A DNA stretch of 64,000 nucleotides from an uncultured Methanosarcinaceae archaeon (GCA_963847185.1 CAWJYV010000010.1:288001-352000), one strand, 5' to 3'. Numbered from the stretch's first letter, positions 3,725 to 26,176 are shown. Numbers and translations are program-made. The notes: generated by a model from the sequence alone, not told the origin.

Positions 3725-5220
3725 TTAGTCCTTCGGGTCAAACTTTATAGCTCGATCGTACACAATCTCTGAGTAGGCTGGCCCGGTCTTTGTTGCGTTT
3801 TCCAGATAGGCTCTCCAGCCAATGAAGAGCGGCTGATCCGGTTCTATGCCGTGAACTCCCACACCGTAAGGAACCTCATAGCAGTATTGATCACCTTCGC
3901 TGCAGTTCCTGGCGAGCTTGTAGACATAGAGGTATTTCGCATTAGGACTGTTCGGGAGATATTCCTCGGCAGACCCACTGAAATCTGCATCTGTGATTGC
4001 TCTAACGCCATTCCACACATCCGCTCCATATATGGCGAAGTTCGAGTACGTTGCTTTTCCTGTAGCTACATGGTTTACTCCATAGACAATTATGAATTCA
4101 TTGGTATCATTGCCCAGAGTAATTGCCGGATCTCGCAGGAAAGGATAGTACAGCGAGGTGTTAAAGAAAGGAGGTGTAGGTGAAGAAGCAGTCTGATTTG
4201 CTGTCCATAGATAACACGCATCGTTGTTTGGACCTACTCCATTGATTCCTCTCTGGATAGCATCACTCCCTACAGGAACTGCCTGACTGATCGGAAGCTC
4301 TGTGGCATTCGACTCATTATACTTTTGGAGAATCGCATTCCTTAGCTCTTCGAGATCATCTTTAAGCTCAAACTCTGTTTGCCCGGTTCCACGGACTCTT
4401 AGCTCTGGATAATTATAAGGATCCAGCTCCGTAGATGTTGTTGGGGAGTAATCCGGAAAACAGTTGCAGGTGTATTATTTATGTAATCTTCGCCAGCCTG
4501 CGTGTCATTGAATAAGGCTGGGCGGACAAATGTAGCAAATGTATCGGAACCATTCTCCAGGCCCATGTTTAATATAGTTGAGGGAAGCACCTGGGTGTTA
4601 ATTATGCCATCCGAATACCCCGCTGATTGGGCAGCAGCCCGGATGCGTTGATCAATGCCTCTGTCGGCTGTAATGATTATTATCGTAGTTTGGTTGAAAG
4701 GATTTCCAGACGACCCGTTTGGAGTTCCTTCGGTTTTGATAACCAGGTTGTTCACTGTGTCTGCTATGTTGGAAAAAATCCATTTCCTCTCATTCCCAAT
4801 TATCCTGTGCATTATGAAATTATCGTAGCTGAAGTACCTGCATTCCGACGGTGTTCTTCCCACGAAAACAACAGCTTCATCAGGACGAAGGTTCCAGAAT
4901 GGAGTTGTATTTCCGCTCATCCCAAGCGCACTTGTTATTTTAGAGATCCGTGCATCTACTTCATAACCACTTGCCGCTGGAACAAAGAATGCCACATATT
5001 TTGTGGTTGGATTGTTTCCGTATGCAGAAGGCAATACTCCTTTCTCTAATAAACCTATTAAATCAAAGTAACCCAATTCACCTTCCTTTACGGTAAATCC
5101 GTCCTGTTCCAAAGCTTGCTGAAAAACTTCAGCTTCATACGTTTCATTCTCTGCGAGTCCAGTCCCTGTTAACACAGTGAACAAGACGCCAAGCAGTATA
5201 AGTAGCATATAATTTTTCAT
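3725..5220 (-). pseudogene. Secreted hypothetical protein, frameshifted near 4440
   Basis: Signal peptide MKNYMLLILLGVLFTVLTGTGLA. After ITP the sequence continues in another frame (TELDPYNYPELRVRGTGQTEFE...YGADVWNGVRA) into track ORF 3725..4018. Confidence 0.75.
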
Positions 5221-11490: not shown

Positions 11491-12064
11491 ATTTTTATAT
11501 ATTCATATAAATATATTAAATTAATTATATGAAAAATTGTTTTTAATTAAAACATAGTTTTATATTAAAAAATTTAGTCGTGTACATGAGTCATGGATCA
11601 ATTCTGAAAAAAGAGCACTATTGACTTGTTTGAGAAAAGTACAGAGAGTTTCTATAGAGTATGGTTTTCGACAACTCGCACCCACGACCAAAAATTTAAA
11701 CAAAGATTATTCCATATAAAAATGATTTTCAATTTTAAGTAATTCAATTTATAAAGTTAAACTAATTTATCGATTCCAAAATGAATCCATTGATCGATGG
11801 TAAAATTTGAAAGTCCAGGTTTGTGAGCATATTTTGGGATCGAAACACTATTTCTGAAACAAGTTTAGGAACGTAGTCTATGAAATCTTGTCAAGTCACA
11901 TTTATTTTATATGACTTTATTTTTATATAAAAAGATGCATATTACTAATTTACATATGAGAGTATATCACTCATATGGCTTCAATTGAACTTGATTTGCC
12001 AAAAAACAGAAAACTTATTTAAAATGACATCCAAATCGAATTCACGAATGGGGGAATGTAAACA

Positions 12065-12253
12065 ATGGAAGTAAGTCCTGTGGAAGTACAGAAAGCTTTA
12101 AAGGATATGGACTATCCTGCACAGAAGAAAGAAATAATTCAGCATGCTAAAAAGCATAACGCCAGCAAAGGAGTATTGGACGAGCTTGAAAGAATAGAGG
12201 ATAAAGAATATAAAAATGCGGCCGAAGTGAGCAAAGAGTTTAAAGGCGAATAA
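12065..12253 (+). CDS. DUF2795 family protein
   Basis: SPVEVQKALKDMDYPAQKKEIIQHAK...Y.NAAEV. GGGGG RBS. Confidence 0.85.
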   Translation: MEVSPVEVQKALKDMDYPAQKKEIIQHAKKHNASKGVLDELERIEDKEYKNAAEVSKEFKGE

Positions 12254-12486
12254 AGTAAGAACTTCTATCACTAGCAATCGAACTGCCGGGCTTGTTATAT
12301 GTAGAGACGAGAGGAGATTCTCAGAGAGTCGACTTTCTTTCTATTTAAATCTAATTTTTTGGTTATATATATTCATTGAATTTTCACGTGATTTATTGGA
12401 TTTCTGTGCAGGGTAAAAAACATACTGCTTTTCTTTTATTATACTTTCGGATTTGTGTTATAGCGTATATTGCACCAGCTATTACT

Positions 12487-13772
12487 TTAGTGCCTAGTTA
12501 TTTTCCCATTGCTAAGTTGACGATAAGCGCAACTCCCAGCCAGGGTCATAATCAGCGTGATAGTCCATCCCAGGATGTTGCTCGCCCTCGAGTTGACGAA
12601 TTGACCCATGACGTCTTTTCTGTTCGCTATCATGATTATCAGAGCCATCAGCGGTGGTGCAGCCAGGCCATTCAATGCAGCTGCGTAGTAAAGGGCAGTT
12701 ATCGGGTTGATGTCGAGCCAGTAAAAGGACATGCCTATCAATGTAGATACAACGATCACCATGTAAAACCCCGGAGCCCTACAGGCTTTTTACAAGTCCC
12801 TCCTTAAGTCCGGCAGTCTCTGCTACAGCATATGCTGACGCACCGGCGAGTACAGGGACTGCAAGTGATCCCGTACCGATGATACCAGCCGCGAAGAGTA
12901 AATAGGAGAGGTCGCCAGCCAGCGGGCGTAGAGCTTCAGCCGCCTGCGAAGCAGTCTGAATTGTGGTAATTCCTCCAGCATGTAGGGTGGCAGCAGTAGT
13001 GACGATGATGAAGAACATAATAACCTGAGAGAAAAGCATCCCAATAATAGTATCCAAGTTCATTTCGACTACACCTCGCAGCGTCACCCGAGGTTTTCCT
13101 GCTCCCATATCGGGAATCTGGCCATCCACAATCTCTTCCTCGACCTCCTGAGATGCCTGCCAGAGAATAGGTAAGGGGAGATTGTTGTGCCCAAAACCGC
13201 AACGATATTAAGCAGGTAATCCGCAGAGAAATCGAGATGTGGAACCATTGTGAAGTAAAAAATAAATTCCCATTTCGGGCTGACAATGAGGGCAGCCAAG
13301 ATGTATGAGAAGAGGGTCAGTGTCAGGTACTTAAGGATTCTCGAATAGGTTCTGTATGGAACGAAGACTTCTAGGATGATGATAGATGCCGTTATGAAAA
13401 TCAGCCAGAAAAGAAAAGGCAATCCTAGCAGCATCTGTGCCGAAGAGGCCATTGCACCTAGATCTGCGCCTATATTGATCGTGTTCGCAGTTACAAGCAG
13501 CAAGACTGCTAAGTACAGTACCCTCTTTGAGTAATGCTCAAGGATGACGTCGGCCAGCCCTTTTCCAGTTACCATCCCTATCCGCCCACACATCTGCTGA
13601 ATAACAATCATGAATGGACCGGTGAACCAGACAAGCCAGAGCTGACCGTACCCGAAGATCGCACCTGTCTGCTTATAGGTCGCAATACCAGAGGGATCAT
13701 CATCGGCGGCTCCAGTAATAAATCCGGGACCTATTTTTCCCAGTAGCCACTTCAGGGTTTTTTATGGGCCAT
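12487..13772 (-). pseudogene. NRAMP/MntH-family divalent metal transporter with about four frameshifts (~13765, ~13160, ~12785, ~12530)
   Basis: GPGFITGAADDDPSGIATY, NTINIGADLGAMA, VLGTTISPYLF, TTAATLH, AAEALRPLAG and LAVPVLAG are spread over several frames. Confidence 0.88.
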
Positions 13773-14243
13773 AGACCTTTATCCCCTTTGAATTGCTTTA
13801 CTGATTGTAACTCTGATTGTGACGCGGTCATGCTTCCTTCGAGGACAAAAAACCGGCTATAGGGGCAATGAGAATATTCAACCGGATTCCTATTTTAGTA
13901 TTGTTATATCAAGGAGCCTATAGGATATTCATTGGTCATTTGTTAAGGTTTAAAATGTCATTCCTGTCATTTATTTTATGTCACTCTTATATAAAAGGCG
14001 ATTAATAGAATTCTACAAAATTACCTGAAAAATAATGATGCATTATCTGAATCTAATAGAATAACTAAATACACGCCATAACACAAAATCACGCTCAATC
14101 TCACATCTAGAACTCGTTTTTAAAGATAACCAGCAATATTAAAAATTACTTAAGTTAGTAGTTAATTTTAAGCCAAGTTTTTTCTGTCAAATACTCGGAA
14201 TCAGAAAATAGTAATTTTTTCAGCATAATAATAACTTTTGATA

Positions 14244-14552
14244 TTATTGGATTTTACAGGAATTTTGGTATTTCATCCTTATTTTAGTAGATCTTGCTCT
14301 CGAATCTCTAATGAATAATCTGTCAATACGATCCCATACAATAACCCATAAAAATTTAGCATAAGAGAAAGGATAATTCATCCAAAAAACCAATTTCCTG
14401 AAAAGCGATAGATTTCTATAGTCCTCTACCCACATAGATTCGCTTAGAAATCCTCTCCAGACAAGAGATTTTTGCATATGTTTCCATCGCTTGAATATAT
14501 GACCTATTATGAATAAGAAGGTACAAGTGATTGCAAATAATCTTTTAGCCAT
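14244..14552 (-). CDS. Hypothetical aromatic/basic-rich protein (102 aa, MAKRLFAIT...)
   Basis: GAGGGTG RBS before ATG 14552. Confidence 0.55.
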   Translation of the reverse strand: MAKRLFAITCTFLFIIGHIFKRWKHMQKSLVWRGFLSESMWVEDYRNLSLFRKLVFWMNYPFSYAKFLWVIVWDRIDRLFIRDSRARSTKIRMKYQNSCKIQ

Positions 14553-14675
14553 ATTTTTCACCCTCGACGACTCAATAAACTTAATAAAAATGGATGAACA
14601 GGAAAATGCATTAAAAGTAACACATTTCTTACAGATCGTATATTTAACCGAATACAAATGAGTATCTTTTCAAAA

Positions 14676-14849
14676 TTATACTTTCTTTCTTCCCATTTTC
14701 TTTCGTACATACCGTAAAACCCCATAAGAACAACCCAATAGAAGCATAATCTTAAAGGGTTTCTCACCTGCTTTGAGGAGTTCTTCGATTTTTTCATGAT
14801 CGAATTTTGGTTTCTGACCTTTTCTTTTTGGAGGAAATTGGCGACTCAT
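14676..14849 (-). CDS. 57-aa HTH-like DNA-binding microprotein MSRQFPPKRKGQKPKFDHEKIEELLKAGEKPFKIMLLLGCSYGVLRYVRKKMGRKKV (not in track)
   Basis: GAGGTG RBS. The pattern resembles the Hin/resolvase-type HTH (basic arm, helix, G, helix, LGCS turn, recognition helix). Confidence 0.65.
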   Translation of the reverse strand: MSRQFPPKRKGQKPKFDHEKIEELLKAGEKPFKIMLLLGCSYGVLRYVRKKMGRKKV

Positions 14850-15514
14850 TAAGATTTCACCTCTTCATACAATTTACTGTACTTTCAAGCTATGAGGGCT
14901 GATTATTTTATAGGCTCAACTGTAGCTGAAAAAAACTTCTTAGCTTCCATAGACTTGACAGAACCTCAAGGAAACTGAAAAAAATCACTTAGCAATCCCA
15001 TATTATCATTCCCCACAATATAAGCATATCATAACAAAAATACAAAAGCTTTTCGGATTACTTATTAATATAAACTATTAATATTTGTTGTATACAATTT
15101 TTCCAAAAGATTGTGTGCTGAATATTTTGTTCATTCTAGTGGTCTCTGTATATTATTCTCTACTGCAAAAAACGGTTCTGTTGTAAAAATAATAAATATA
15201 GAAGTAAAAATTTAGTTGTCAATGCAATGAACATTTGAAAAGCAGAATATTCCCAAGAAAACAGCTAATGTAAACAGCTATTCCGAATAACTTGTTCATA
15301 AAATTGGCTTCAACAAGAACACATTAGCAGCAGGGAAAGCGCTGAACCCATGTAAGAACTGACATTTCTATTTTATTAATGAATCTAAAAAAACCTTCTG
15401 CTTACATAGTTATTTACATTATGCATCCGTTTTTCAATTGCTCTTGTTGTCGTTTTACTGATTTTACCTGTAAAATTTGCACTTTTATATTTTGCAGTAA
15501 AAAGATACACGTTT

Positions 15515-15620
15515 TTACTTTTGTCTTGAAAAAACGCTTCCTATTTATTCACTATTACAGAACAAGAGCATTAAGAGTAAAGAGCTGATCTGACCTGGCA
15601 TTCTGATTCATGTAATGTAA
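15515..15620 (-). pseudogene. Casposase (casposon Cas1) extreme C-terminal remnant 1
   Basis: LHYMNQNARSDQLFTLNALVL*..VNK*EAFFSRQK* aligns with remnant 2. The 3' flank is also homologous to ~20570-20670. Confidence 0.75.
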
Positions 15621-16010
15621 ACATGGAGCGTATCTGTTAAGACTAAAACAGCACATTCAATTTCGGGCGTGGAGCAAGAGTTATGGAAAACTGAAAGCAT
15701 AAGAATCTCTCTACATATTTCATGAAGAGTTCAAATTGTTCTACCGATTCAGGTTTTAGCTTTTTTATGTCTTCATTTGATAAAATTCATGAGTTCCAGC
15801 TTTTTTTCAGCTTTCGCGCAAAGGTCGCTCTACTTCGTCGATCGTGGACGTACCTTGGGTTCAGAAAAATGACTCTCTCTACTCTGCCAGCTGGAAAATA
15901 TAATCTGAAATCAGCTAAAAGGGGCTACTAAAAAATAATCAAAAAAAGATTAAAGAAAGGTCAGAGAATAAGTTTTCTCTGATTAATTATTGGTTGGTTG
16001 TCCCTCTTGT

Positions 16011-17312
16011 TTAGAGCTGCTGGCGCCTGTCAATAATTCTCTTTGCCTTTCCTGCAGTCCTCTCGATACTGCCTTTTTCAAGGAGTTCGACATTTGTACG
16101 GATATTCAGGACGGCTTTGAGTTCATGCTGGACGTGGTTCTGGACGGCTTTGAGGTCGTTGAGTTCGCCTGTGAAGGCATTTTCTTCTAGCTCAACTTCG
16201 ATTGTGAGTTCGTCGAGCATGTGTTTATTGCGGTCGAGGATCAACTGGAAATGTTCGCCGACCTGGGGGATTCTTGAGATTACGTCCTGGATCTGGGAAG
16301 GGAATACGTTGATGCCTCTTACGATAAGCATATCGTCGGCTCGACCAAGGAGACGGGAGATTCTTGTGGTTGTCCTGCCGCAGTCACATTCGGATTCGAG
16401 GAGTCTGGTCATGTCGCCTGTGCGGTATCTGATGTTGCAGAAGCCTTCTTTGTTGATTGAGGTGAGGACAAGTTCGCCTTTTTCGCCTTCTGAAACCTGT
16501 TCTCCGTTTTCGTCGAGGACTTCGACCAGGAAGTTGTCGCTCCAGATGTGCAGACCGTTCTGTTCCTGGCATTCGAAACCGACCCCAGGGCCGAACATTT
16601 CTGAAAGGCCGTAACAGTCATAGGCTTTGAGATTGAGCCTTTTTTCAAGTTGCTTCCGCGTATTTTCAGACCAGGGTTCACCTCCGAAGATGGCTGCTTT
16701 TAAGGAGAGTTTGTCTACAAGGTCGAGTTCTTCTGCGGTTTCGGCAAGATAGAAGGCGTAGGAAGGGGTACAGTGGACTGCTGTTACCCCGAAATCGATC
16801 ATCATCTCAAGCTGCCTGGCAGTATTTCCGGTTGCAGCAGGCACGATCATGGATCCCATCCTCTCTACACCGTAGTGGAAGCCCAGGCCGCCTGTAAAAA
16901 GACCGTAGTTCATGGAATTCTGGACAATGTCGCCTTTCGAAAGCCCTATCATTGTTAGGCTCCGTGCAATCATATCCGACCATGTTTCAATGTCTTTTGC
17001 AGTGTACCCGACAACCGTAGGTTTTCCGCTTGTTCCCGAGGATGCATGAATACGCACTATGTCTTCTTTTTTGGCAGCAAATAGCCCGAATGGATAGTTG
17101 TCCCGAAGGTCCGTTTTCCGCGTAAAAGGCAGTTTACGGACATCTTCGAGAGTTTTTATGTCATCAGGAGTGACTCCAGCCTCCTTAAACTTCTGCCTGT
17201 AGAAGGGAACATTGTCATAGACCAGCTTTGCACTGTGTTGAAGACGTTTTAGCTGAAGTCTCTTCAGTTCTTCGGAATCCATTGTTTCGTATTTCGGCTG
17301 CCAGTAATTCAT
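16011..17312 (-). CDS. paaK: Phenylacetate--CoA ligase family protein
   Basis: HASSGTSGKPT, YGLFTGGLG, YGLSEMFGPG, RYRTGD, GRADDMLIVRGINVFP. Confidence 0.92.
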   Translation of the reverse strand: MNYWQPKYETMDSEELKRLQLKRLQHSAKLVYDNVPFYRQKFKEAGVTPDDIKTLEDVRKLPFTRKTDLRDNYPFGLFAAKKEDIVRIHASSGTSGKPTVVGYTAKDIETWSDMIARSLTMIGLSKGDIVQNSMNYGLFTGGLGFHYGVERMGSMIVPAATGNTARQLEMMIDFGVTAVHCTPSYAFYLAETAEELDLVDKLSLKAAIFGGEPWSENTRKQLEKRLNLKAYDCYGLSEMFGPGVGFECQEQNGLHIWSDNFLVEVLDENGEQVSEGEKGELVLTSINKEGFCNIRYRTGDMTRLLESECDCGRTTTRISRLLGRADDMLIVRGINVFPSQIQDVISRIPQVGEHFQLILDRNKHMLDELTIEVELEENAFTGELNDLKAVQNHVQHELKAVLNIRTNVELLEKGSIERTAGKAKRIIDRRQQL

Positions 17313-18147
17313 AAAAAGAACCTTCTTTTATTTTGTAAGACCATTTTTAGCTCATGATGTTTTTATGAACAAACCCTATTCTTACTAAACCTACTCATGC
17401 CATGTCTCTACATGTCACGACATATTAAGTAATCCTATGAATAATATAAAATGTTTGGAAAAATCCTTCTGTACTGTAATCTTCCCACATATAAAGATTG
17501 TTGAATGAATTTTATATTGGAGAGTTAGGAAAATTAGTGGGTTCAAATTAAACCCCTGCATAAACTATAGGATTATAGGGAAGTCAAATTTTTTGTACGC
17601 AAGTGTAAGAATAATGCACAATCTCTTATCTTAGAAAACTGCCTTGAATAAAATTATACTACTTTTAAAATAAAATTTGAATAAAAAGTCTTTTTTGTAC
17701 ATCCTTTAGTAGAGATTTGTAAAGATGATGTACAAAATTGTATAGAGTTGCCCATCTCATCTTAATTTATGTTTTATAAAAACAGATTAATAAAAAATTA
17801 AAGTCTTTTCGCATTTACTCACGAGGGTATCGATAGGAAAAATATGCTTTAAAATAAAGGGTTATCCAGTAGCTATTTTTTAAAAAGCGTTACATAGTCT
17901 TTGGGATGATCATAAACGAAAACAGATAAGCATATTTTATATCGTATTTGCATATCAATTACATCATTTAAAATTAATAGCTTATACAATTGTAAATCTA
18001 TTTTAACAGATCTAAAGAAGAAATTAACTTTTCAAGCAGACCAAAGGGTTCGTCATGCGAATTAGAGGATACTCAGGAGTAAAAATATACTGACAAAAGT
18101 GAGAAATTATTTTTCCATAGTTTTTATCTTAAACCTAGCAACGAAGT

Positions 18148-20301
18148 CTATCTTTTATCATTTTTCAGTTCCTCAAGCTGTCTCTTACAAGAATTAATTA
18201 ATTCTTGTTCCCCATGTTCTTGAGCAATTTTCAGTGCCTTTTCATGACACTCAATTGCTTTTCTCGACTCTCCAAGATCATTATATGCTAGACCCATATC
18301 TCCAAGGTTATCTACTTCTTTTCGCCGGTACCCAAGCTCTTGAGCAATTTTCAGTGCCTTTTCATGACACTCAATTGCTTTTCTCGACTCTCCAAGATCA
18401 TTATATTCTTTCCCCAGATATCCAAGGGTAGCCCCTTCATTTCGCCGCTGCCCAATTTCTTGATAAATTTTCAGTGCCTTTTCATATTTTTCAATTGCTT
18501 TTCTCGATTCTCCACTATTACGGTATGCCATCGCTGTACCCCTAAAAATTGCAGCATGAATTTCGTCTTCTACTTCCCTAACAAAAGGATTTTTAGCAAA
18601 TTGTTCTACGAATAAATTAAAATATTTTAACATAGTATAATAATCAAATTCAAAATGGGGATTCTCACGAAGGATGTTGTCAGCCTGATCGTATTCTTCT
18701 GCCATATTTGCATGGTAAAAGGCTTCAAACGCAAGATTATTATATTCTTTTTCTCCAAGCTCATCTGTAATTAGGAAACGGTAATATTCCATTGCAAGTT
18801 TATGGACTTCTTTTTTATTTTTTAGATCAATATAAGAAAATTTTTCCACTTGATTTTGAAGCCAGTACCTCCCTTTATGGTCAGTTTCCAATAATGATTT
18901 GTCTATCAAATTATCTACAGCATCTATGGGAGTCTTATCTGTAAACATAATTTTAATTGCATTCATAGTTTCAGCCCGACGATAGACTGATATGCGCTCT
19001 AATAGCTCCTTTTCGTTCCCCGCCAATTTATCAAACATTTTTCTGGTTTTCTTGATGGTGCTTTCTTTGAGGTCTCTATATCGAGTCAGATCGTTTAATG
19101 TATCAGATACTCCAAACTTTTTAACAAGGCCTACTAAAAGCTTTAGTGCCAGAGGATGCCCATCTATGTCCTTAGCTAGTATTTTTAATTCGTCAAGCGT
19201 TAAACTATCAAGTCCATTTTTGGCGAGATAATCAACTGCAAAATCCGTTCTCAACCCATTTAGATGCTGTTTCTCCTCCTCAACTACGTCGATAAGACTT
19301 TCTCCATTTTTAAAATTGGGAAGAACACGGCTTGTGATAATGATCTTTGCATTATGGGTACGGTATCGTAAAGAAGAAAAAAGAAGTTCAATTCCCTTAT
19401 CATTAAATTTTGTATTTTCAAGTATAATGCTTAGATCATCAAAAAAGAGCCAGATTTCGCTTCTGTCATTGAGCACGCCTGTGAACTTATCCACATCATT
19501 TTTTCCGGGTTCTCTCCTGTCTGATTTAAATTCTGTAATTTCAGGAGCTCTCATATATGCTGCAAGTTCTTCAAGGATATCACCCAGTTTTGCGTCCTGG
19601 TTATCATAAAAGCTAAACCAAAAAGGTTCTGGGACATTTATAGGTCTGAGATCAACAAGAGCTCTTGCAAGCGTAGTTTTCCCCACACCTCCAATACCAC
19701 TAATAAGTAAAATTTTGTGTTTTTCAAGATATGTAAGGGCTTTTCTTAACTCATCAGCCCTGTTATTAGTAACGAATTCCTTTAACCTTTCAGGGTAAGC
19801 TGGAAGAGCTGAAGAATTATATCGGTGCATAATTTCTTGGTTTTCTGCTTCTTTTCTTCTTTCATCCAGATATTCAATGATTTTGATATACTCATCATCA
19901 GAAGGAGTTTCAATATTGAAAAATGTATTATAGCTTCCCAAGGCGAGATGATTAATATTCTCCACGTTGAGATTTATAGTAAGATCAATTTTCCTTGCTA
20001 GATCACGGTCTTCACTTAGCAATTTCAAGATTCCCTGTTGAAGCTCTTCTTTTGCTATTGTGTCTTCTGAGTTTTTGGACAATTTCTCAAGGGCTATTTC
20101 TATGGGTTTGCTCTTTTTTAACCTTATTTTATCAAATACAATTTTAGCTTTATTTAAAGATTTAGAGCCCAATTTTTCGATACCTTTCTCAAGAAGCATA
20201 TCGTGAACTTTCGCCGTTACAACCTCTCTTTCCGCATAGATGAACGGCAGGGCAGGAGCGAGAACATCTGTTGCTTGATGAGCAAGAGAGATTAGATCCA
20301 T
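18148..20301 (-). CDS. STAND (NB-ARC-like) ATPase with N-terminal helical domain, wHTH and C-terminal TPRs
   Basis: Walker A GIGGVGKT, Walker B WLFFDD, IIITSR, GHPLAL, LIDKSLL, and TPRs LGESRKAIECHEKALKIAQELG. Confidence 0.88.
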   Translation of the reverse strand: MDLISLAHQATDVLAPALPFIYAEREVVTAKVHDMLLEKGIEKLGSKSLNKAKIVFDKIRLKKSKPIEIALEKLSKNSEDTIAKEELQQGILKLLSEDRDLARKIDLTINLNVENINHLALGSYNTFFNIETPSDDEYIKIIEYLDERRKEAENQEIMHRYNSSALPAYPERLKEFVTNNRADELRKALTYLEKHKILLISGIGGVGKTTLARALVDLRPINVPEPFWFSFYDNQDAKLGDILEELAAYMRAPEITEFKSDRREPGKNDVDKFTGVLNDRSEIWLFFDDLSIILENTKFNDKGIELLFSSLRYRTHNAKIIITSRVLPNFKNGESLIDVVEEEKQHLNGLRTDFAVDYLAKNGLDSLTLDELKILAKDIDGHPLALKLLVGLVKKFGVSDTLNDLTRYRDLKESTIKKTRKMFDKLAGNEKELLERISVYRRAETMNAIKIMFTDKTPIDAVDNLIDKSLLETDHKGRYWLQNQVEKFSYIDLKNKKEVHKLAMEYYRFLITDELGEKEYNNLAFEAFYHANMAEEYDQADNILRENPHFEFDYYTMLKYFNLFVEQFAKNPFVREVEDEIHAAIFRGTAMAYRNSGESRKAIEKYEKALKIYQEIGQRRNEGATLGYLGKEYNDLGESRKAIECHEKALKIAQELGYRRKEVDNLGDMGLAYNDLGESRKAIECHEKALKIAQEHGEQELINSCKRQLEELKNDKR
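18218..18520. repeat. 120-bp period intragenic repeats encoding 40-aa TPR units
   Basis: AATTTTCAGTGCCTTTTCAT...TCAATTGCTTTTCTCGA recurs at about 18227, 18347 and 18467. Confidence 0.9.
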
Positions 20302-20669
20302 AAAACTCCTCAGATTTTTCTTTAATATTGGAAGCTGGTAAAATAAGTTTTTTTATTTAATACGGTCAGAAATGAATTTTTGGGTTTATTATCCAGAATA
20401 TCTGTTAATTGTTTAACTAACGGACTCTGTAGAAGTCCTTATTTTGATGTAAATTATTTCTTCAACACTTTGTTTGGTTACCCACTAACAGTTTAATTTT
20501 TATTTATTTGACTTGTTCATAGAACTTTTTTGCCCTTAGTACTTCTCAAGACTTCCTTTTGGCAACAGAAAATGTTGTTTGCGCTATATTCCGTTTATTT
20601 TTTTCTATTTTACTGTAAATTTTACATTTTTTTACGATTTTTACATTTTATAGTAAAAGCATACACATT

Positions 20670-21085
20670 TTACTTTTGACCTGAAACCAACGCCTCCCAC
20701 TTATTCACTCTTTCCAGAACATGTGCATTAAGAGTAAACGGCTTATCACTTTTGGCATTTTGTTTCATGTAATGCAAAGTACCCTTAGAAAACCCTAATT
20801 TTCTCCAATCAACATGAGAAATGCTCAGGATCTTTCTCCTAATTTCATGGGAATCAACCCTATTAACCCCAAATTCAGGGCTAACGAAATCTAATTCCTT
20901 GGATTTTCCTGTAAGATTATGGGCTAACTCTCTGGCCTTTATTAGTAATATAGACCCCAGATTGTCTGTTTCTCCTCATAATTTGCAGTCTGATTCATCA
21001 TACTAAAGAACTTATTAGCTACTTTCTTTCTCCCAGGACCTCTTGATCTCAGGTTGTAAACACGTTTATTATCAGGCTCCTGAAG
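20670..21085 (-). pseudogene. Casposase (casposon Cas1) C-terminal remnant 2, ~130 codons, one frameshift near 20957
   Basis: LQEP..YNLRSRGPGRKKVANKFFSMMNQTANYEEKQTIW/GSILLIKARELAHNLTGKSKELDFVSPEFGVNRVDSHEIRRKILSISHVDWRKLGFSKGTLHYMKQNAKSDKPFTLNAHVLERVNKWEALVSGQK*. Confidence 0.85.
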
Positions 21086-21374
21086 GCTGAGAAATGAGTC
21101 GGCCACGCTTTTTCAAACAATACATAACTTATGGAAAATGGTTCAAAGCTCAATCAAGAGATAAAAAATATGAAAAAGAAGTCTTGTTAAGGAATGGCTC
21201 AGGGGAAGATTAAGGATTCAATTACTGGTAGATTTTTTTAGGTAGATCAATGGCAGTAGATATAAAAATAAGGGAAATTTTGAGAAGTGCCGAATTTAAT
21301 AACCTCGAAATATAAGTCGTTGACTATAGAAATATCTAAATACAGATATGGGGTATAAATTTACTATGATATTT

Positions 21375-22610
21375 ATGAAAGGAAAAAAATGTTTTTTAAT
21401 AGGCTTATTACTTATAGTAATTCTCTGGTCGGGTTGTATTGAATCTACCGGAGAAGCTACCAGTGAATCTGAGAACATAACCATAGGAGCTCTTTTACCG
21501 CTTACGGGAAGCGTTGCTTCTATCGGAGAAGCAAGCCAGACAGCACTTGAAGTATCGACTGAGGATATCAATGGCTATTTCTCGGCACTTGGTTCCGGAA
21601 AGAATGTGAAAGTAATTGTTAAGGATACTGAGAGTGATCCTGCAACTGCTCTGGAACAGCTCAAAGAACTTGATAAAATGGGGATAAGGATAGTTATCGG
21701 TCCGCAGGGAAGCAGTGAGGCAGAAGCCGTTCTGGATTATGCAAACCAGAATGGCATTATTCTTCTGAGTACTGCATCAACAGCCTCATCTTTAGCGATT
21801 CCGGACGATAATCTATTCAGGCTTGTGCCTGACGACACCAACCAGGGAATGATACTGGCCACGTTGATGAATGATGAAGGGATAAAAACTGTAATTCCGA
21901 TATACAGGAATGACCTGTGGGGTAAAGGACTCGCTAGTGACATCGAAAAGAATTTTAAGGCCCTTAATGTCACAGTGCTTGAGGGAGTTGCCTATCAAAC
22001 CGAAAATGTGAACCTTTCCGCAGAAGTAGAGGTACTCAATGAAAAAGTAGTAGCAGCCTCTTCAGAAAATGGGAAGGGATCAATAGCAGTGGTTCTTTGC
22101 TCCTATGGAGAAGCAAGGGAGATCTTTGCTTTAGCCAAGAGCTATCCTGCTCTGTCAAAGGTCAAATGGTATGGCACTGACGGTATAGCGCTAAACAAGG
22201 AACTGATTAACGATGCTAATTCAGCCAGTTTTGCTGCAGCAACCAATGTCAAAGCGCCGATTTACGGATACGTGAGTGAAAATGACATGTGTCAGGTGGC
22301 TGAACCAAAAATTGAAGAACGACTTGGAAGAATTCCTGAGTCTTACGCATTGACTGCATATGACGCTCTCTGGATAGCTACATTTGTTGATCTAGATGCC
22401 ATTTCAGATAATGATAAAAGTGTAAAACTGGCAATGGATGTCATTACAGACACTTATCATGGAATTAGTGGATGGACAATACTCAATGAGAACGGAGACC
22501 GAAAATACTGGGATTACGGCATCTGGAATGTCACTGAAGAAAACGGAACTTACCAGTGGGAAAAGGAGAAAACCGTTATTATGAGGGGTGAAAAGTTAAA
22601 ATCTGTTTAA
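21375..22610 (+). CDS. Branched-chain amino acid-type ABC substrate-binding lipoprotein (orphan)
   Basis: Lipobox WSGC, ITIGALLPLTG, DTESDP, VIGPQGS, LFRLVPDD, AYDALW. Confidence 0.88.
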   Translation: MKGKKCFLIGLLLIVILWSGCIESTGEATSESENITIGALLPLTGSVASIGEASQTALEVSTEDINGYFSALGSGKNVKVIVKDTESDPATALEQLKELDKMGIRIVIGPQGSSEAEAVLDYANQNGIILLSTASTASSLAIPDDNLFRLVPDDTNQGMILATLMNDEGIKTVIPIYRNDLWGKGLASDIEKNFKALNVTVLEGVAYQTENVNLSAEVEVLNEKVVAASSENGKGSIAVVLCSYGEAREIFALAKSYPALSKVKWYGTDGIALNKELINDANSASFAAATNVKAPIYGYVSENDMCQVAEPKIEERLGRIPESYALTAYDALWIATFVDLDAISDNDKSVKLAMDVITDTYHGISGWTILNENGDRKYWDYGIWNVTEENGTYQWEKEKTVIMRGEKLKSV

Positions 22611-22741
22611 TAAATGGTGGTGTCTTCACACCATCAATTATGTTTTTATTATCTGGAATTTTGTCATTTTCTACAAAACTCCTTATTTTCCAATGATCTT
22701 TTATAATAAAGTTTATTTTGTAAAAAATTTGTTTATCCTTA

Positions 22742-22880
22742 TTTATGGGAATCAACTCTCTGAACCCCAAATTCAGGGCTAACAAAGTTCAATTCCTTGG
22801 ATTTTCCAGTAAGATTATGGGCTAATTCTCTGGCCTCTAGGAGTAATACAGACCCCCAAGTTGTCTGTTCACCTCATAAC
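22742..22880 (-). pseudogene. Casposase internal remnant 3
   Basis: QTTWGSVLLLEARELAHNLTGKSKELNFVSPEFGVQRVDSHK*, a direct repeat of ~20847-20985. Confidence 0.8.
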
Positions 22881-22934
22881 TGTCAGTGTGTGTTTAAATT
22901 TTATTGGCATACTACCTAAAGATAGTACAGGAGT

Positions 22935-23354
22935 ATGACATTATTGAACGAAGCTCTGCTCATTGCTCCCTGCGGAATGAATTGTTGCACTTGTGCGGCT
23001 TATTTAAGGAAGAGAAATAAATGCTCAGGCTGTAGAATTGATGCTAACAAACCTGTTACTCGGGTTATATGCAAAATGAAAACATGTGGAACTTTTACAG
23101 AAAACAAATTAACATTTTGTTTTGAATGTAAAGATTTTCCCTGCAAGAATTTAAAGCATCTGGATAAAAGATATCGTACGAAATACAGTATGAGTATGAT
23201 TGAAAATCTTGAAAACATTAAAAAACTTGGCATAGAGGAATTTCTAAATAATGAAAAAATAAGATGGACATGTACCAAATGCGGCGGCACAATCTGTGTT
23301 CATAAAGGCTATTGTTATAACTGCAGGAGAAAAGGCATCGATGATACATATTGA
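22935..23354 (+). CDS. DUF3795 Cys-rich protein
   Basis: APCGMNCCTC, CSGC, FCFECKDFPC, RWTCTKCGGTICVHKGYCYNC. Confidence 0.85.
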   Translation: MTLLNEALLIAPCGMNCCTCAAYLRKRNKCSGCRIDANKPVTRVICKMKTCGTFTENKLTFCFECKDFPCKNLKHLDKRYRTKYSMSMIENLENIKKLGIEEFLNNEKIRWTCTKCGGTICVHKGYCYNCRRKGIDDTY

Positions 23355-23483
23355 GCCTATCCCAGAACCCGAAAACTGCTTTTCGAATCTCGATTTTGAA
23401 ATAATCAGTCGAGCTACTGATCATAAAAGTAGTTATGAAATTCCTATGAATATGGAAACAAAAATTGGTTTTGGGATGAGCTC
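23353..23483. mobile_element. MITE-like element (~131 bp)
   Basis: TIRs GAGCCTATCCCAGAACC / GGTTTTGGGATGAGCTC. The left end overlaps the DUF3795 stop codon. Confidence 0.7.
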
Positions 23484-24005
23484 ATCCATAAATAGAAAAA
23501 AGAAAAAATTGCAGCGAGAATGAGGTTAGTTTTAGTATGATTTTTCCCTTCATTGTTCCCATCCACTCAGCTTCTTTTCAGTAAAAGTCCTGCTTCAAGA
23601 TACTTGATTTCAGTTTCCATTTCCGCAAGTTTCATCCAAGTAAGATAAACGTCTCTTAACAGTAAATAAAATGCAATTCCAACCATCAAATAGAAAGGAA
23701 ATCCAAAATGTGTTCCGATAGCAATCAATCCCAGAAGGAGAACAACAAGATATAAAGGCTCTTTTTTCATATCCATCATGTCTCGCCTCAGAGTCATGGC
23801 TTTAGCTTCACGGTGGCTTATATCTCCTCGTTGCACCATAAACCAAATGTCAAAATCACGTATAACCTTCGAACGTTGCATATTTCCTCATTGATTAGGA
23901 ATAAATAGTCAGCATACAAACCGCGGCCCCGGCTATACGGCTATATATCCATTCAAATTTATTGCACCAATACTATATATTTCAAGTCCTGTAAGTAGTA
24001 CAAAA
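23461..24005. repeat. 545-bp direct duplication, copy 2
   Basis: Near-identical to 8593..9137. Confidence 0.95.
23567..23881 (-). CDS. Small two-TM hypothetical protein, copy 2
   Basis: Differs from 8699..9013 at four residues. Confidence 0.6.
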   Translation of the reverse strand: MQRSKVIRDFDIWFMVQRGDISHREAKAMTLRRDMMDMKKEPLYLVVLLLGLIAIGTHFGFPFYLMVGIAFYLLLRDVYLTWMKLAEMETEIKYLEAGLLLKRS

Positions 24006-24034
24006 GCTCCAGCATAAGCTTGTTTTAGACTCAT
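23933..24034 (-). CDS. 33-aa hydrophobic peptide MSLKQAYAGAFVLLTGLEIYSIGAINLNGYIAV (possibly the start of a frameshifted longer gene)
   Basis: GGAGGAGG RBS. Its 3' part is retained in duplication copy 1. Confidence 0.45.
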   Translation of the reverse strand: MSLKQAYAGAFVLLTGLEIYSIGAINLNGYIAV

Positions 24035-24257
24035 CTTGTCTCGCCTCCTCCCTAGAACTCAACTTCCAATTAATGATTTTCATCATATTAACAAATGAAA
24101 CAAAAAAGGGAAATGCGCTCGCACCTGCCAGAAATGCTCTATAATTAACAAACGCCAATCCAGCTGTGGTAGTTAATAACCCACAGTTAAAACACCGCAT
24201 GGAATATCCAAAAGTAACAAGCAATGTGATACATCTCAACAGTTCTTTTGCCTTCAT
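23982..24257 (-). CDS. Small hydrophobic hypothetical protein (MKAKELLRCITLL...)
   Basis: AGGTGA RBS 4 nt before ATG 24257. Confidence 0.45.
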   Translation of the reverse strand: MKAKELLRCITLLVTFGYSMRCFNCGLLTTTAGLAFVNYRAFLAGASAFPFFVSFVNMMKIINWKLSSREEARQDESKTSLCWSFCTTYRT

Positions 24258-25000
24258 GCTGTCACCTACATAGGTTTTCCCTACTCCGCTATCGACCCCG
24301 TGACCCTGATACACTCAAGGTCATCAAGACAAACTTCTGTCTTTTCTGAGACGGTTTTGAACAGTCCATTCTTAATTTGGATCTCAAAAATCAGGCATGT
24401 AATGATATCTCAAATGAGATTTCTAACAAAGACATCGACCCCAAACATGTCCCTGGTCCACTCATCAAGAAGGATCTTCCATTCCTCAGATCATACCCCA
24501 GTTTCTCATAGAGAATGTCATAGAGAATGTCAGGGTTGCTTAGATCTTGGTAGCTCCAATGTCAGGAGATTTCGAGCAGAATGGATCATATACCGCATCT
24601 TATTGTTCCAGGCTTTGTATATTAAAAAAATAGACATTTTGTCACCAATATAATTTAAACAGTTCAATGATCTTGTCAGACTGAACCTATTTACGTCTCT
24701 TAATACTCATAAATTGCAAATTCTATCTGTAAGCCGGATTTATCGTCTTCTTTCTCAACTATGGATTCCTCTAAGGCAGTTGCAGTTTCATCCATTATCA
24801 GGTCCTTGATACTCTCAGTTTTTAATATCGAAGATAATGAAGAATCCTGATAGGGAGTCTTTTAGAAAGATACCACCTTACTTAGAGAAAAATATATTAA
24901 TGTATGAGAATTACACAGTATATTTATTACAATATTATTTTTAGAATCTATTAAAGTCCTGTTTCTAAAAAGCATTACTTACAGGTTAAGAGGCGATTAA

Positions 25001-26176
25001 ATGGCTGTTACACTAGATGAGAAAGAGCCTACTAAAAACATAAATCTTGAAGAGAAAATCAGAATCGAAAAAGACAGGCTTTTAAATTTCATAAAAGAAA
25101 GAAATGATTATATCAAAAGTTTACCTGAGATTGAAAAGAAAGCATTTATCGCTTCAATAGAAAAGGTAAAAGAAGGTACAGGTAAAATAGAAAGATTACT
25201 GCTGAAAAAGGGAACCAGCAAAGGCATTGATGACCTTCTTTTTTCTTTTGAAGAACTCCCTCTTTTCGGGAAAGAATACTGGTTCATGAAATTCACGTCA
25301 AATGACGGGTCCAGACGCCAGTTTTTTCTTATGTTCGGCAGGAGCGCAGGGGATATCGAGGTCAATGACAAGTATATAGAAAACAGCAGGATAATAGACA
25401 ATAGAACAGAGGGATATTGTATCTCCTGGGCCTATGACGAAATCCAGAGAAATATTACAGATGATCTTGGGATTATTCAAGTGAAAGATGAGAAGGTAAC
25501 CTGCTCTACCAGAGATATTCAGGCTGACTTCTATGGGTCCTTTCCGAAATATATGCTTGAGATTTCAAACGATGGAAAAAAGATTTGCTGTTTGGATATC
25601 AAAGAGCCAGCAGACGATAACTATGATTGCGAATTGTCTGAAGATTTCAAAAGCTTATTCGGGTACAGGCTTGCTAATCTGTATTTCGATTTTGGGGGTA
25701 TGTTGTTTGACAAGGATTTCTCCGGAAAGTGCTATGCCCAGAAAGTAATTGTTGTAGGGCCGTTTATACCCTGGAAATGGTCAAGAATTGTTTTCAGAAA
25801 CGGATCAATCCTGACCTACTACATACCTAATATCGAGATTGGAGGAGTAGAATACAATATACATAATTCCATGGACTTCTATGATGCAGAAACGAAGAAA
25901 ATGCATCACTTCAAAAAAGCCAAAGTGCATGAATACCCCTCTGAAAAAGGAGATAAAAGGTGGATTATTACCGCTGAAGAAGGAAAAGTGTTCATGGTTA
26001 CGAAGAGCTATTGTAAGGAATCGTTCAGTTTCATAAATAACTTCAATTTCAATTATATAGAAAATCTTGTCGACGTTGTTGATTTCCAGATCGAAATTGA
26101 TGATAAGGTTATAACACTGGAGGAAACCGGAAGTGGATTGGGTATGGTTGAAGATACTTCAGGATTCGTAATATAA
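25001..26176 (+). CDS. Hypothetical protein (391 aa), beta-rich, possibly a tocopherol-cyclase/AttH-like fold
   Basis: Long ORF, GAGG RBS, motifs KEYWFMKF and YAQKV..VGPFIPWKWSR. Confidence 0.75.
   Translation: MAVTLDEKEPTKNINLEEKIRIEKDRLLNFIKERNDYIKSLPEIEKKAFIASIEKVKEGTGKIERLLLKKGTSKGIDDLLFSFEELPLFGKEYWFMKFTSNDGSRRQFFLMFGRSAGDIEVNDKYIENSRIIDNRTEGYCISWAYDEIQRNITDDLGIIQVKDEKVTCSTRDIQADFYGSFPKYMLEISNDGKKICCLDIKEPADDNYDCELSEDFKSLFGYRLANLYFDFGGMLFDKDFSGKCYAQKVIVVGPFIPWKWSRIVFRNGSILTYYIPNIEIGGVEYNIHNSMDFYDAETKKMHHFKKAKVHEYPSEKGDKRWIITAEEGKVFMVTKSYCKESFSFINNFNFNYIENLVDVVDFQIEIDDKVITLEETGSGLGMVEDTSGFVI

Follow-up and report, generated by a model that had tools for sequence, protein, structure and literature searches.

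Remnants of family-2 casposons at a tRNA-Leu-like site in an uncultured Methanosarcinaceae archaeon, and the 3' bias of their casposase pieces

Casposons, the elements proposed to be ancestral to the CRISPR adaptation machinery, have been shown to be mobile in Methanosarcina. The locus described here raises the question of how three co-oriented pieces of a casposase gene came to lie within 7.4 kb, and why casposase remnants so often come from the 3' part of the gene. The original prediction, made from the 64,000-nucleotide stretch of DNA that was analysed (the window), placed minus-strand fragments at 15515-15620, 20670-21085 and 22742-22880 and read them as products of repeated casposon integration or duplication followed by decay. 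A full-length casposase homologue of 408 aa (P0001) was used as tblastn query against the whole genome; a PDB comparison of P0001 gave E 1.4e-206 for 6OPM, the M. mazei casposase, and 6e-38 for the best CRISPR Cas1. All three fragments were present, essentially at the predicted coordinates:

15483..15623, minus strand: fragment 1, casposase stub aa 370-391 with in-frame stops after it and about 90 nt of conserved post-stop flank
20670..21058, minus strand: fragment 2, casposase stub aa 277-403 and the stop codon, frameshift near aa 311, HTH tail included
22732..22890, minus strand: fragment 3, casposase stub of approximately aa 297-349 with stops, lacking the 5' part and the HTH tail

Fragment 2 was matched in two frames (20679-21058, aa 277-403, E 1.8e-53) and fragment 3 at 22745-22870 (aa 306-347, 90% identity, E 1.6e-17), and the translations of both had 6OPM as their sole PDB match (E 2e-44 and 7.2e-9, respectively). 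The tblastn match of fragment 1 was weak (15558-15623, aa 370-391, 68% identity, E 0.01) but at the DNA level the piece aligned with fragment 2 (78.7% over 141 nt, blastn E 4.6e-24), which supports its identity. As stated in the original prediction, the tail is the HTH-bearing C-terminus of the Methanosarcina casposase: fragment 2 aligned to 6OPM residues 330-422, and the available text of PMC6977970 gives the HTH tail as residues 342-406 and as missing from CRISPR Cas1. This extension of 60-70 residues is present in fragment 2, partly present in fragment 1 and not present in fragment 3. No long ORF runs over the fragments, in agreement with their reported absence from the ORF track, and the only overlapping ORFs are of 33 and 35 aa. 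No piece of casposase aa 1-276 was found in the window by tblastn with P0001, the Cas1 profile PF01867 had no match there, and the 88-aa tail fell into no Pfam family, the HTH tail not being modelled in Pfam. All three minus-strand pieces are remnants of family-2 casposases. With their frameshifts, stops and lack of a start codon the stubs are non-functional pseudogenes, and nothing at the locus is able to transpose.

Comparison with relatives established that 17505-22928 is an insertion between a host paaK-like AMP-ligase gene and a DUF3795 gene. Homology to relative G004, where paaK and DUF3795 are adjacent and the casposon is absent, ends at 17504 and restarts at 22929; the G004 site is diverged and without recognisable target sequence, and shows the absence of a casposon rather than a pristine target. 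Fragment 3 lies roughly 40 nt from the resumed host homology, and fragment 1 is found on the opposite side of the paaK-like gene from fragments 2 and 3. The host flanks and the surviving casposon end are as follows:

16011..17312, minus strand: paaK-like host flank, a 433-aa AMP-binding ligase (Pfam), conserved beside the site in 9 relatives
17537..17557, plus strand: relic of a tRNA-Leu(UAA) 3' end, leader-like (T-arm and acceptor)
17556..17569, plus strand: TSD-like 14-mer abutting the TIR, CGCA-then-AT-rich pattern minus one base, single copy
17570..17600, plus strand: TIR of 31 nt, casposase-proximal end (C-end)
17601..18147, no strand: TIR-proximal non-coding interior; 17600-17780 matches interior sequence of an intact casposon of relative G014 at 86-93% identity
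22935..23354, plus strand: DUF3795 host flank, gene for a 139-aa protein (Pfam, synteny)

Relative G006 carries an intact casposon at the same tRNA-like site, bounded by 14-nt TSDs that match each other and by TIRs separated by 10.6 kb; the window's TIR aligned with its two ends at 89% identity over 37 nt and 85% over 47 nt. TIRs were also identified in G014 and in the elements of other relatives, while the search in reference locus L008 turned up no TIR, just recurring promoter-like motifs ahead of HEAT genes. In a hand alignment with the tRNA-Leu(UAA) of the genome, the relic agrees with 22 of 30 positions at the 3' end, and the same relic precedes the G006 casposon, whose TSD has a perfect CGCA; a TSD pattern of CGCA followed by AT-rich sequence is given in the available text of PMC4779613 and PMC6977970. 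No tRNA gene was called in the window by ARAGORN. Where neither a TIR nor a target had been recognised before, one TIR and a putative tRNA-Leu-like target relic lie at 17537-17600. The search for a complete set of ends succeeded in part: one TIR and the TSD-like 14-mer were found, but blastn-short detected no inverted TIR partner in the window or nearby, and a scan for another copy of the TSD was negative (8 matches with 3 mismatches or fewer versus 8.6 expected by chance, only the site itself being exact).

Remnants were found at the same locus in four further relatives (G011, G016, G012 and G002), and the same side of paaK carries sequence derived from a casposase in 5 of the 9 loci retrieved from relatives. 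Along with the empty site in G004 and the intact element in G006, this bears out repeated integration and supports the locus as a repeatedly used casposon integration site. Duplication, the other process that had been proposed, fared less well. Local segmental duplication of one old remnant would account for three pieces in the same orientation within 7.4 kb, and a second cluster of three co-oriented stubs is present within 4.2 kb at C10:423955-428165. The fragments do align with one another as predicted, but fragment 1 is just 78.7% identical to fragment 2, and fragment 3, at 84.5% identity to fragment 2, is closer to copies elsewhere in the genome (90.3% to those at C10:423955 and C4:16409). 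Furthermore, the post-stop flanks form two lineages, no homology between the units extends outside cas1, and independent elements occupy the same site in relatives. Independent insertions fit these comparisons better, and duplication in place of separate integrations is very improbable.

The single casposon end bears in turn on whether the stubs belong to non-autonomous mini-casposons mobilised in trans, each a short insert between two TIRs. According to the available text of PMC10359463, foreign DNA surrounded by TSD and TIR transposes in M. mazei in vivo, and the stubs are clustered at a spacing of 1.3-2 kb. A genome scan by blastn-short, however, located TIR-like sequence at only 3 places, all of them single casposase-side ends beside tRNA-Leu or its relic, and none near fragment 1. 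With one TIR only at the locus, neither an inverted partner nor a second TSD, and no paired ends around any stub, the non-autonomous derivatives considered in the original prediction are barely credible.

Inside the insertion, four further features accompany the stubs:

18148..20301, minus strand: intact STAND NTPase cargo gene, 717 aa, NB-ARC/nSTAND with C-terminal TPR repeats (Pfam, PADLOC)
20422..20612, minus strand: interspersed repeat of approximately 190 nt between the cas1 stop and the start of the cargo gene
21094..21186, plus strand: stub of the conserved casposon gene p212, aa 1-31 (tblastn E 1.3e-6)
21348..22610, plus strand: gene for a periplasmic solute-binding lipoprotein, 420 aa, between the stubs (Pfam)

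The gene order, with casposase and TPR-protein gene pointing one way and p212 the other, is the same as in the complete, TIR/TSD-bounded G014 casposon. In intact elements p212 is divergent from the p313-casposase operon, and about 1.9 kb of element centre is missing between the p212 stub and fragment 2. That no polB had been recognised was borne out by a lack of genome-wide matches to PolB (PF03175, PolB of L008 and PolB of G006), and p313 and p119 likewise had no matches genome-wide. The solute-binding gene is not established as casposon cargo: in two G006 loci it is separated from casposon genes by approximately 10 kb, and no enclosing TIR was found. Its junction with the p212 stub also occurs in relative G007. 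The 190-nt repeat, which probably lies outside the casposon proper, matched no Rfam family and showed no covarying structure (0 of 16 pairs compensatory).

The cargo of the window and that of the intact G014 casposon share 90% aa identity and 96-100% nt identity. PADLOC returned weak TPR/STAND-type matches for this gene and none for four other cargo ORFs tested; only its domain type suggests a role in defence. All three TIR-bearing relics in the genome contain long open cargo ORFs between TIR and casposase stub, and two of the three encode STAND NTPases. Identity to the G014 element is uneven, amounting to 96-100% at 18100-20600 (cargo and intergenic sequence), 85% falling to 59% across the stub at 20700-21100, and 47% in the TIR. 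Such a step between the cargo and the adjacent cas1 stub indicates exchange of the cargo cassette, and the locus would record a recent movement of cargo between different casposon backbones.

The reading that we prefer, at a probability of roughly 0.7, is that 17505-22928 represents the remains of at least two family-2 casposons that decayed inside-out, and that fragment 1 is the relic of a third element. At least two casposons would have inserted with a common orientation at a single tRNA-Leu-like pseudo-target, on the upstream side of the paaK-like gene, and fragment 1, across paaK, would be a separate relic. The unit nearest the target retains the TSD-like sequence, one TIR, the intact STAND-NTPase/TPR cargo, the last 127 casposase codons and 31 p212 codons; the element centre and the entire PolB side are deleted, and the distal unit is down to a 42-codon casposase island (fragment 3). 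Transcription of the casposase and PolB genes runs outward from the element centre, and it is the outer, 3' parts that remnants of each retain. Deletions of the promoter-proximal core may have been favoured or tolerated, and terminal cargo, here a STAND NTPase perhaps useful to the host, may have been retained together with whatever adjoins it.

Retention of the 3' end was investigated in a survey of 41 Methanosarcina genomes, in which 118 rows were merged into 100 loci among the matches listed (150 of 249), 12 of them full-length-like and 88 partial; the partial loci are not independent events, and related genomes may have inherited relics in common. Among the matches listed, coverage of the 88 partial loci rose from 0 at aa 1-50 to about 59 at aa 351-400, with 58 of the loci extending at least to aa 390 and 69 having no part before aa 200. 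The surviving segments are a non-uniform sample of the gene, as had been anticipated. A search artefact, with the HTH tail recovered most often as the best conserved part, might be argued from the many shortest stubs that among the matches listed begin at aa 350-366, the start of the highly conserved HTH core (0.82 at aa 351-375 across 80 full-length homologues). In the same homologues aa 51-100 and aa 201-250 are conserved as well or better (0.80-0.92) but are covered by only 2.5-6.7 and 17-26 of the 88 loci, respectively, whereas for aa 276-350, where conservation is poor (0.48-0.57), the figure is 38-51, all among the matches listed; the gradient is therefore not due to conservation. The Pfam Cas1 profile, which genome-wide reaches only model positions 167-283, also speaks against an artefact, an explanation to which we attach next to no weight. 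Retention of the casposase 3' end is genuine and genus-wide, and the 3'-end excess characterises casposon decay across the genus in general. The casposon PolB gene behaves likewise, in that 26 of its 28 partial loci contain sequence from the C-terminal half only. Casposase stubs (88 loci among the matches listed) outnumber these 28 PolB stubs, though PolB is twice as long, which counts against the inside-out reading.

The original prediction had raised a cis-acting function for the 3' end. The casposase 3' end and its post-stop flank could serve, together with TIR-proximal sequence, as a homology arm for the swap or pickup of cargo, or could be a regulatory or terminator element for the cargo gene. 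The identity break between window and G014 falls exactly at the cas1 stop, and a pair of stubs from other parts of the genome shares 93.7% identity within cas1 but is unrelated past the stop codon. Moreover, the non-coding flank predicted to be common to fragments 1 and 2 was confirmed by blastn (31 nt beyond the stop codon) and recurs in the intact casposons of two relatives; 60-90 nt of post-stop sequence with repeated palindromic motifs are kept in stubs 1 and 2 and in the intact elements of G006 and G014. However, a break at the gene boundary is also expected from variable cargo beside a conserved core gene, fragment 3 is without the 3' end and flank, and stub lengths vary continuously with no common minimal unit among the matches listed. 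PolB remnants, for which no such role is proposed, are equally 3'-biased. Because the two core genes diverge from the centre and PolB has the same 3' bias, inside-out decay sparing termini and cargo is the simpler reading; a cis function is unnecessary and in our judgement unlikely. Two further observations run against parts of inside-out decay: the end preserved in all three TIR-bearing relics of this genome is the casposase-side one and never the PolB-side one, contrary to a purely symmetrical model, and anchoring by cargo fails to explain fragments 1 and 3 because neither adjoins cargo or a TIR.

A more tentative proposal, possible though doubtful, is that casposon relic arrays are polarised and serve as reservoirs of cargo. 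The tRNA-Leu-like leader would be the entry point of each new element, so that older units would be displaced away from it while being eroded inside-out. The surviving TIR, cargo and casposase 3' stub would then present two conserved homology arms, via which STAND NTPase genes and other cargo could be exchanged or recaptured by casposons arriving later. The most complete unit was leader-proximal in 4 of 4 arrays inspected (the window, C10:420 kb and the paaK loci of G006 and G016). A polarised array would explain these leader-proximal complete units as well as the casposase-side bias and the identity break at the cas1 stop.

In class II derivatives of the Ac/Ds and P-element type, central coding sequence is lost while both ends are kept and the element can still be mobilised. 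The relic resembles such internally deleted transposons in that its centre is lost and terminal parts survive, but only one end survives here and it is therefore immobile. The likeness to CRISPR arrays lies in the leader-like sequence needed upstream of the integration site, in the repeated addition of units at a single position and in the closeness of the most complete unit to the leader-like relic, a polarity that we infer from 4 loci; unlike CRISPR arrays, this locus contains no repeats or spacers. Consistent with the earlier failure to recognise an array, an Rfam search for one by cas1 (12000-26000, E up to 1) gave a single CRISPR-DR7 match at 14270-14305, 3 kb away, scoring 27.7 against a gathering score of 37 bits.

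The closest known systems are the family-2 Methanosarcina casposons such as MetMaz-C1 and the tRNA-Leu-integrated elements, as described in the available text of Krupovic et al. 2016 (PMC4779613) and Hickman et al. 2020 (PMC6977970). Shared with these are the C-terminal HTH of the casposase, a 31-nt TIR of the same sequence family, the 14-nt CGCA-then-AT-rich TSD-like sequence (here minus one base), a putative target at the 3' end of tRNA-Leu or a look-alike (here a degenerate intergenic relic with no tRNA gene called), TPR-protein cargo and tandem elements at one site. In contrast to them, the element here is dead, has its casposase in stubs and lacks PolB, p313, HNH and a second TIR/TSD. Degraded remnants at a conserved site, commoner than intact elements, are also represented by the M. 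mazei IR1 solo-TIRs and the inactive Methanococcoides burtonii casposons (PMC4779613, available text); the remnants described there are TIR-only or whole elements with broken genes, whereas here a TIR is still connected to an intact cargo gene and to a casposase 3' stub.

The kind of element is already known and the decay pattern modestly new, and the current picture of casposons is refined, not changed. A literature search, supplements apart, found no published description of a genus-wide 3' gradient in both core genes, which constitutes a simple and testable decay rule. The locus illustrates, in a natural setting and at good resolution, how a pseudo-tRNA-Leu target is used repeatedly and what a dead casposon leaves behind, namely one end, cargo and gene stubs. 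The survey also touches on annotation. 'Cas1' proteins of 186, 203, 212 and 246 aa were considered as a functional short form and rejected, as all start at an internal methionine (M159, M194, M203 and M234); these lengths recur because gene callers start at a conserved internal methionine after truncation. Annotators should accordingly be wary of 180-250-aa 'Cas1' ORFs in Methanosarcinales, which are truncated casposases starting at conserved internal methionines.

The locus is a real, well-explained casposon graveyard at a repeatedly used site resembling tRNA-Leu. Largely ordinary in kind, it shows a decay rule that is modestly new and clearly documents an exchange of cargo. Six-frame translation and tblastn of a full-length casposase homologue (P0001, 408 aa) against the source genome (G000) were utilized in order to locate the three co-oriented fragments of the original prediction, which were borne out by these searches and by matches to the M. 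mazei casposase structure (PDB 6OPM). Positions within the protein follow P0001.

15558-15623, minus strand: fragment 1, aa 370-391 (tblastn)
20679-21058, minus strand: fragment 2, aa 277-403 in two frames (tblastn), with its stop codon at 20670-20672
22745-22870, minus strand: fragment 3, aa 306-347 (tblastn)

Stops or frameshifts were found in all three fragments and none lies within a long ORF. The longest open casposase fragment elsewhere in the genome shares 94% identity with P0001, which matched 6OPM at E 1.4e-206, against just 6e-38 for the best CRISPR Cas1 structure. Direct translations of fragments 2 and 3 matched 6OPM alone in the PDB (E 2e-44 and 7.2e-9). As predicted, fragment 2 covers the C-terminal HTH tail (6OPM residues 330-422), which PMC6977970 describes as present in family-2 casposases, absent from CRISPR Cas1 and essential for integration. 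Fragment 1 is weak at the protein level (E 0.01, tblastn with P0001); as DNA it aligns with fragment 2 over 141 nt at 78.7% identity (E 4.6e-24), an alignment that includes 31 nt past the stop codon. The 3' flank said to be common to these two fragments is thus real, but it is ordinary casposon sequence, since the flank of fragment 1 matches those of intact elements in two relatives (G006 and G014) over roughly 90 nt.

The window is C10:288001-352000 of G000, a genome placed in the genus Methanosarcina from named loci. Orthologous loci were identified with the window's own genes as markers, and the locus of the paaK-like gene was fetched in 9 of 18 same-genus genomes. In G004 the paaK-like AMP-ligase gene (window 16011-17312) and the DUF3795 gene (22935-23354) are directly adjacent. 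Homology of the window to this locus stops at 17504 and restarts at 22929, meaning that 17505-22928 (5.4 kb) is inserted DNA. The two genes lie 1.2 kb apart in G013, with casposase sequence absent from the gap, and 38 kb apart in G006, where the gap starts with an intact casposon that has 26-nt matching inverted ends 10.6 kb apart, the same 14-nt target site duplication (TSD) starting CGCA beside each end, and genes for full-length casposase, p313, p212, an HNH-size ORF and PolB. An extra casposase stub (aa 215-403) lies past it. The proposed comparison with empty-site loci yielded both an empty and an occupied form of the same gap. Casposase-derived sequence was present on this side of paaK in five of the nine loci (G006, G011, G016, G012 and G002) and was not found in the stretches fetched from the other four (G004, G013, G001 and G007; tblastn with P0001 only, E <=1e-5). 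Integration has thus recurred at the paaK site. Across paaK from the insertion, fragment 1 borders a region rearranged relative to G004 and has no terminal inverted repeat (TIR) nearby.

The inserted DNA reads as follows.

17537-17557: relic of a tRNA-Leu 3' end, directly past the end of host homology
17556-17569: 14-mer of the CGCA-then-AT-rich type, one base missing
17570-17600: 31-nt TIR
18148-20301: open 717-aa STAND NTPase/TPR gene with NB-ARC, nSTAND3/6 and TPR domains (Pfam; PADLOC 'TPR', E 5.8e-11)
next in order after this cargo gene: fragment 2, casposase aa 277-403
36 nt beyond fragment 2, on the opposite strand: first 31 codons of p212
21348-22610: solute-binding lipoprotein gene, past the p212 stub

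The same tRNA-like relic precedes the intact G006 element, both ends of which match the window TIR, and the 110 nt after this TIR are 92% identical to the interior of the complete G014 casposon. The latter (10.8 kb; TIR at L102 7222, inverted TIR at L112 49, identical 14-nt TSDs) carries a TPR-protein gene, casposase and p316 transcribed toward one end and p212, an HNH-size ORF and PolB toward the other, of which the window retains exactly the left part, namely cargo, casposase end and p212 start. Roughly 1.9 kb of the centre, which would carry casposase aa 1-276, p313 and the divergent promoter region, is missing between fragment 2 and the p212 stub, and p212 beyond codon 31 and the remainder of the element are gone. 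The junction of p212 stub and lipoprotein gene is common to the window and G007 (81% identity); fragment 3 lies isolated after the lipoprotein gene, about 40 nt from the host flank. The insertion holds no second TIR, second TSD copy or tRNA gene, and no pieces of PolB, p313 or p119 were found anywhere in G000. The tblastn check proposed for casposase and PolB thus confirmed the former and found the latter absent genome-wide; of the reported lack of polB, TIRs and tRNA target, only the first stands, as one TIR and a tRNA-Leu relic are present. Non-autonomous derivatives were not supported, as the paired ends that would mark them are absent.

Repeated integration and duplication had been offered side by side. 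Fragment 3 shares 90.3% identity with the stubs at C10:423955 and C4:16409, on two contigs of the same genome, versus just 84.5% with fragment 2. Post-stop flanks of the stubs fall in two lineages, and homology between units is limited to cas1. Separate insertions of different lineages fit these alignments better than local duplication.

Genome-wide, casposase matches occurred at 11 places (18 HSPs; tblastn with P0001), and mapping of the surviving segments placed all within aa 174-408; the Pfam Cas1 profile matched at model positions 167-283 only. TIR-like sequence was found at three places only, the window, C10:419958 and C4:11229. All three are casposase-side ends; in each, long open cargo ORFs come next, with a casposase stub after them. 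The TIR at C10:419958 is preceded by a tRNA-Leu-like relic and a CGCA TSD, with a 1043-aa NACHT STAND NTPase (C10:420575-423706) as cargo, and a second cluster of three co-oriented stubs follows at C10:423955-428165. Together these form a second graveyard (C10:419958-428165), 72 kb past the window end, whose three stubs have NosD-like and PKD-domain ORFs interspersed among them. The TIR at C4:11229 directly follows a real tRNA-Leu(UAA) gene; this relic (C4:11129-16982) lies at the 3' end of that gene and comprises a TSD, a TIR, three cargo ORFs that are open but match no Pfam family, and a 186-aa casposase stub annotated as a protein (P0019) in public data.

Retention of the 3' end was evaluated across the genus by searching 41 Methanosarcina genomes with P0001, the figures being drawn from 150 of 249 matches listed. 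Rows at <=32% identity represent CRISPR-type Cas1 (about 340 aa) and were left out; 118 rows at >=38% identity were merged to 100 loci (12 full-length-like and 88 partial, the partial loci not being independent events as related genomes have common ancestry).

Coverage of the casposase by the 88 partial loci, among the matches listed
aa 1-50: 0
aa 51-100: 2.5-6.7
aa 201-225: 17
aa 301-325: 43
aa 351-400: 58-60

The predicted 3' retention is evident from this gradient. Among the matches listed, 58 of the 88 partial loci extended to aa >=390, and 69 were restricted to aa >=200 as against 6 to aa <=200. Conservation does not account for it, as aa 51-100 are better conserved (identity to P0001 of 0.80-0.92 in 80 full-length homologues) than the often-retained aa 276-350 (0.48-0.57) yet are seldom kept. 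A search with G006 PolB performed in the same way gave 28 partial loci, of which 26 contain sequence from the C-terminal half alone; a contig end truncates one of the two exceptions. Intact elements have casposase and PolB in divergent orientation, their 3' ends toward the TIRs, so the 3' bias in both genes indicates that loss starts in the centre and reaches the outer parts last. Casposase stubs were three times as frequent as PolB stubs (casposase count among the matches listed), and in G000 casposase-side ends are the only ones surviving, which symmetry alone does not account for.

The casposase stubs themselves do nothing. The best explanation of the pattern, we infer, is core deletion combined with cargo retention: once an element is dead or costly, deletion of its promoter-proximal core would be tolerated or favoured, and terminal cargo would be retained, with adjoining sequence surviving by hitch-hiking. 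Intact cargo ORFs in all three TIR-bearing relics support this explanation; fragments 1 and 3 do not. Identity of the window to G014 is 96-100% at 18100-20600 (cargo and its upstream region), falls through the cas1 stub to 85, 70, 65 and 59% in turn and is 47% at the TIR. These breaks indicate that the cargo cassette moved recently between two different backbones, one junction lying at the cas1 stop and the other immediately internal to the TIR. The suggested cis-acting role of the 3' end survives only in a weaker form: the conserved cas1 end may mediate such exchange, or may simply lie beside a variable region.

According to PMC4779613, PMC10359463 and PMC6977970, the casposons of Methanosarcina target tRNA-Leu or intergenic sites that resemble it. 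Their TIRs measure 31-59 nt and their 14-nt TSDs begin with CGCA; they form tandem arrays with TPR and other cargo, leaving solo-TIRs behind. Integration requires the TSD and 30 bp of upstream tRNA sequence, and a mini-casposon in vivo entered an existing TSD, making a tandem. The window is compatible with all of this, as a dead example. No description of the 3' gradient in both core genes, or of cargo exchange with these junctions, was found in the literature searched, although the coordinates and remnant lists in the supplement of PMC4779613 may be relevant here.

Several repeats were observed nearby. One, interspersed, AT-rich and about 190 nt long (20422-20612, also C10:43910-44085), occurs 5-13 times in every one of the four relatives searched, frequently near the ends of contigs. 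Its hosts include G018, a genome without any casposase match, and it gave no Rfam family or covarying structure. Some 900 nt at 14200-15100 are 82-91% identical to one place in at least 10 relatives (87-91% in most), and a 325-nt core of this segment (about 14264-14590) recurs in extra copies. The segment contains small ORFs (137 and 57 aa; no Pfam family) and, at 14270-14305, an Rfam match to CRISPR-DR7 that falls below threshold (27.7 bits against a 37-bit gathering score). A repeat of about 130 nt (23350-23485) has many copies in several relatives, with G009 carrying it in no fewer than 7 places, and recurs at three or more other places in G000 (C10:296482, C1:2798 and C5:56445). Overlapping minus-strand ORFs in different frames at 12779-13611 resemble pieces of one membrane transporter gene and may be a frameshifted pseudogene.

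In G014, a further casposon-like unit (L102 1-7221) lies in tandem with the complete element, with a TSD in common, and encodes a 1577-aa ORF for which PADLOC gave no match. In L008, a locus of Methanosarcina sp. DH2, arrays of the repeated 12-nt motif TGTTGTTTAACT (2163-2305, 4689-4837 and 11643-11794) lie upstream of every HEAT-repeat cargo gene of an intact casposon and may be regulator binding sites.
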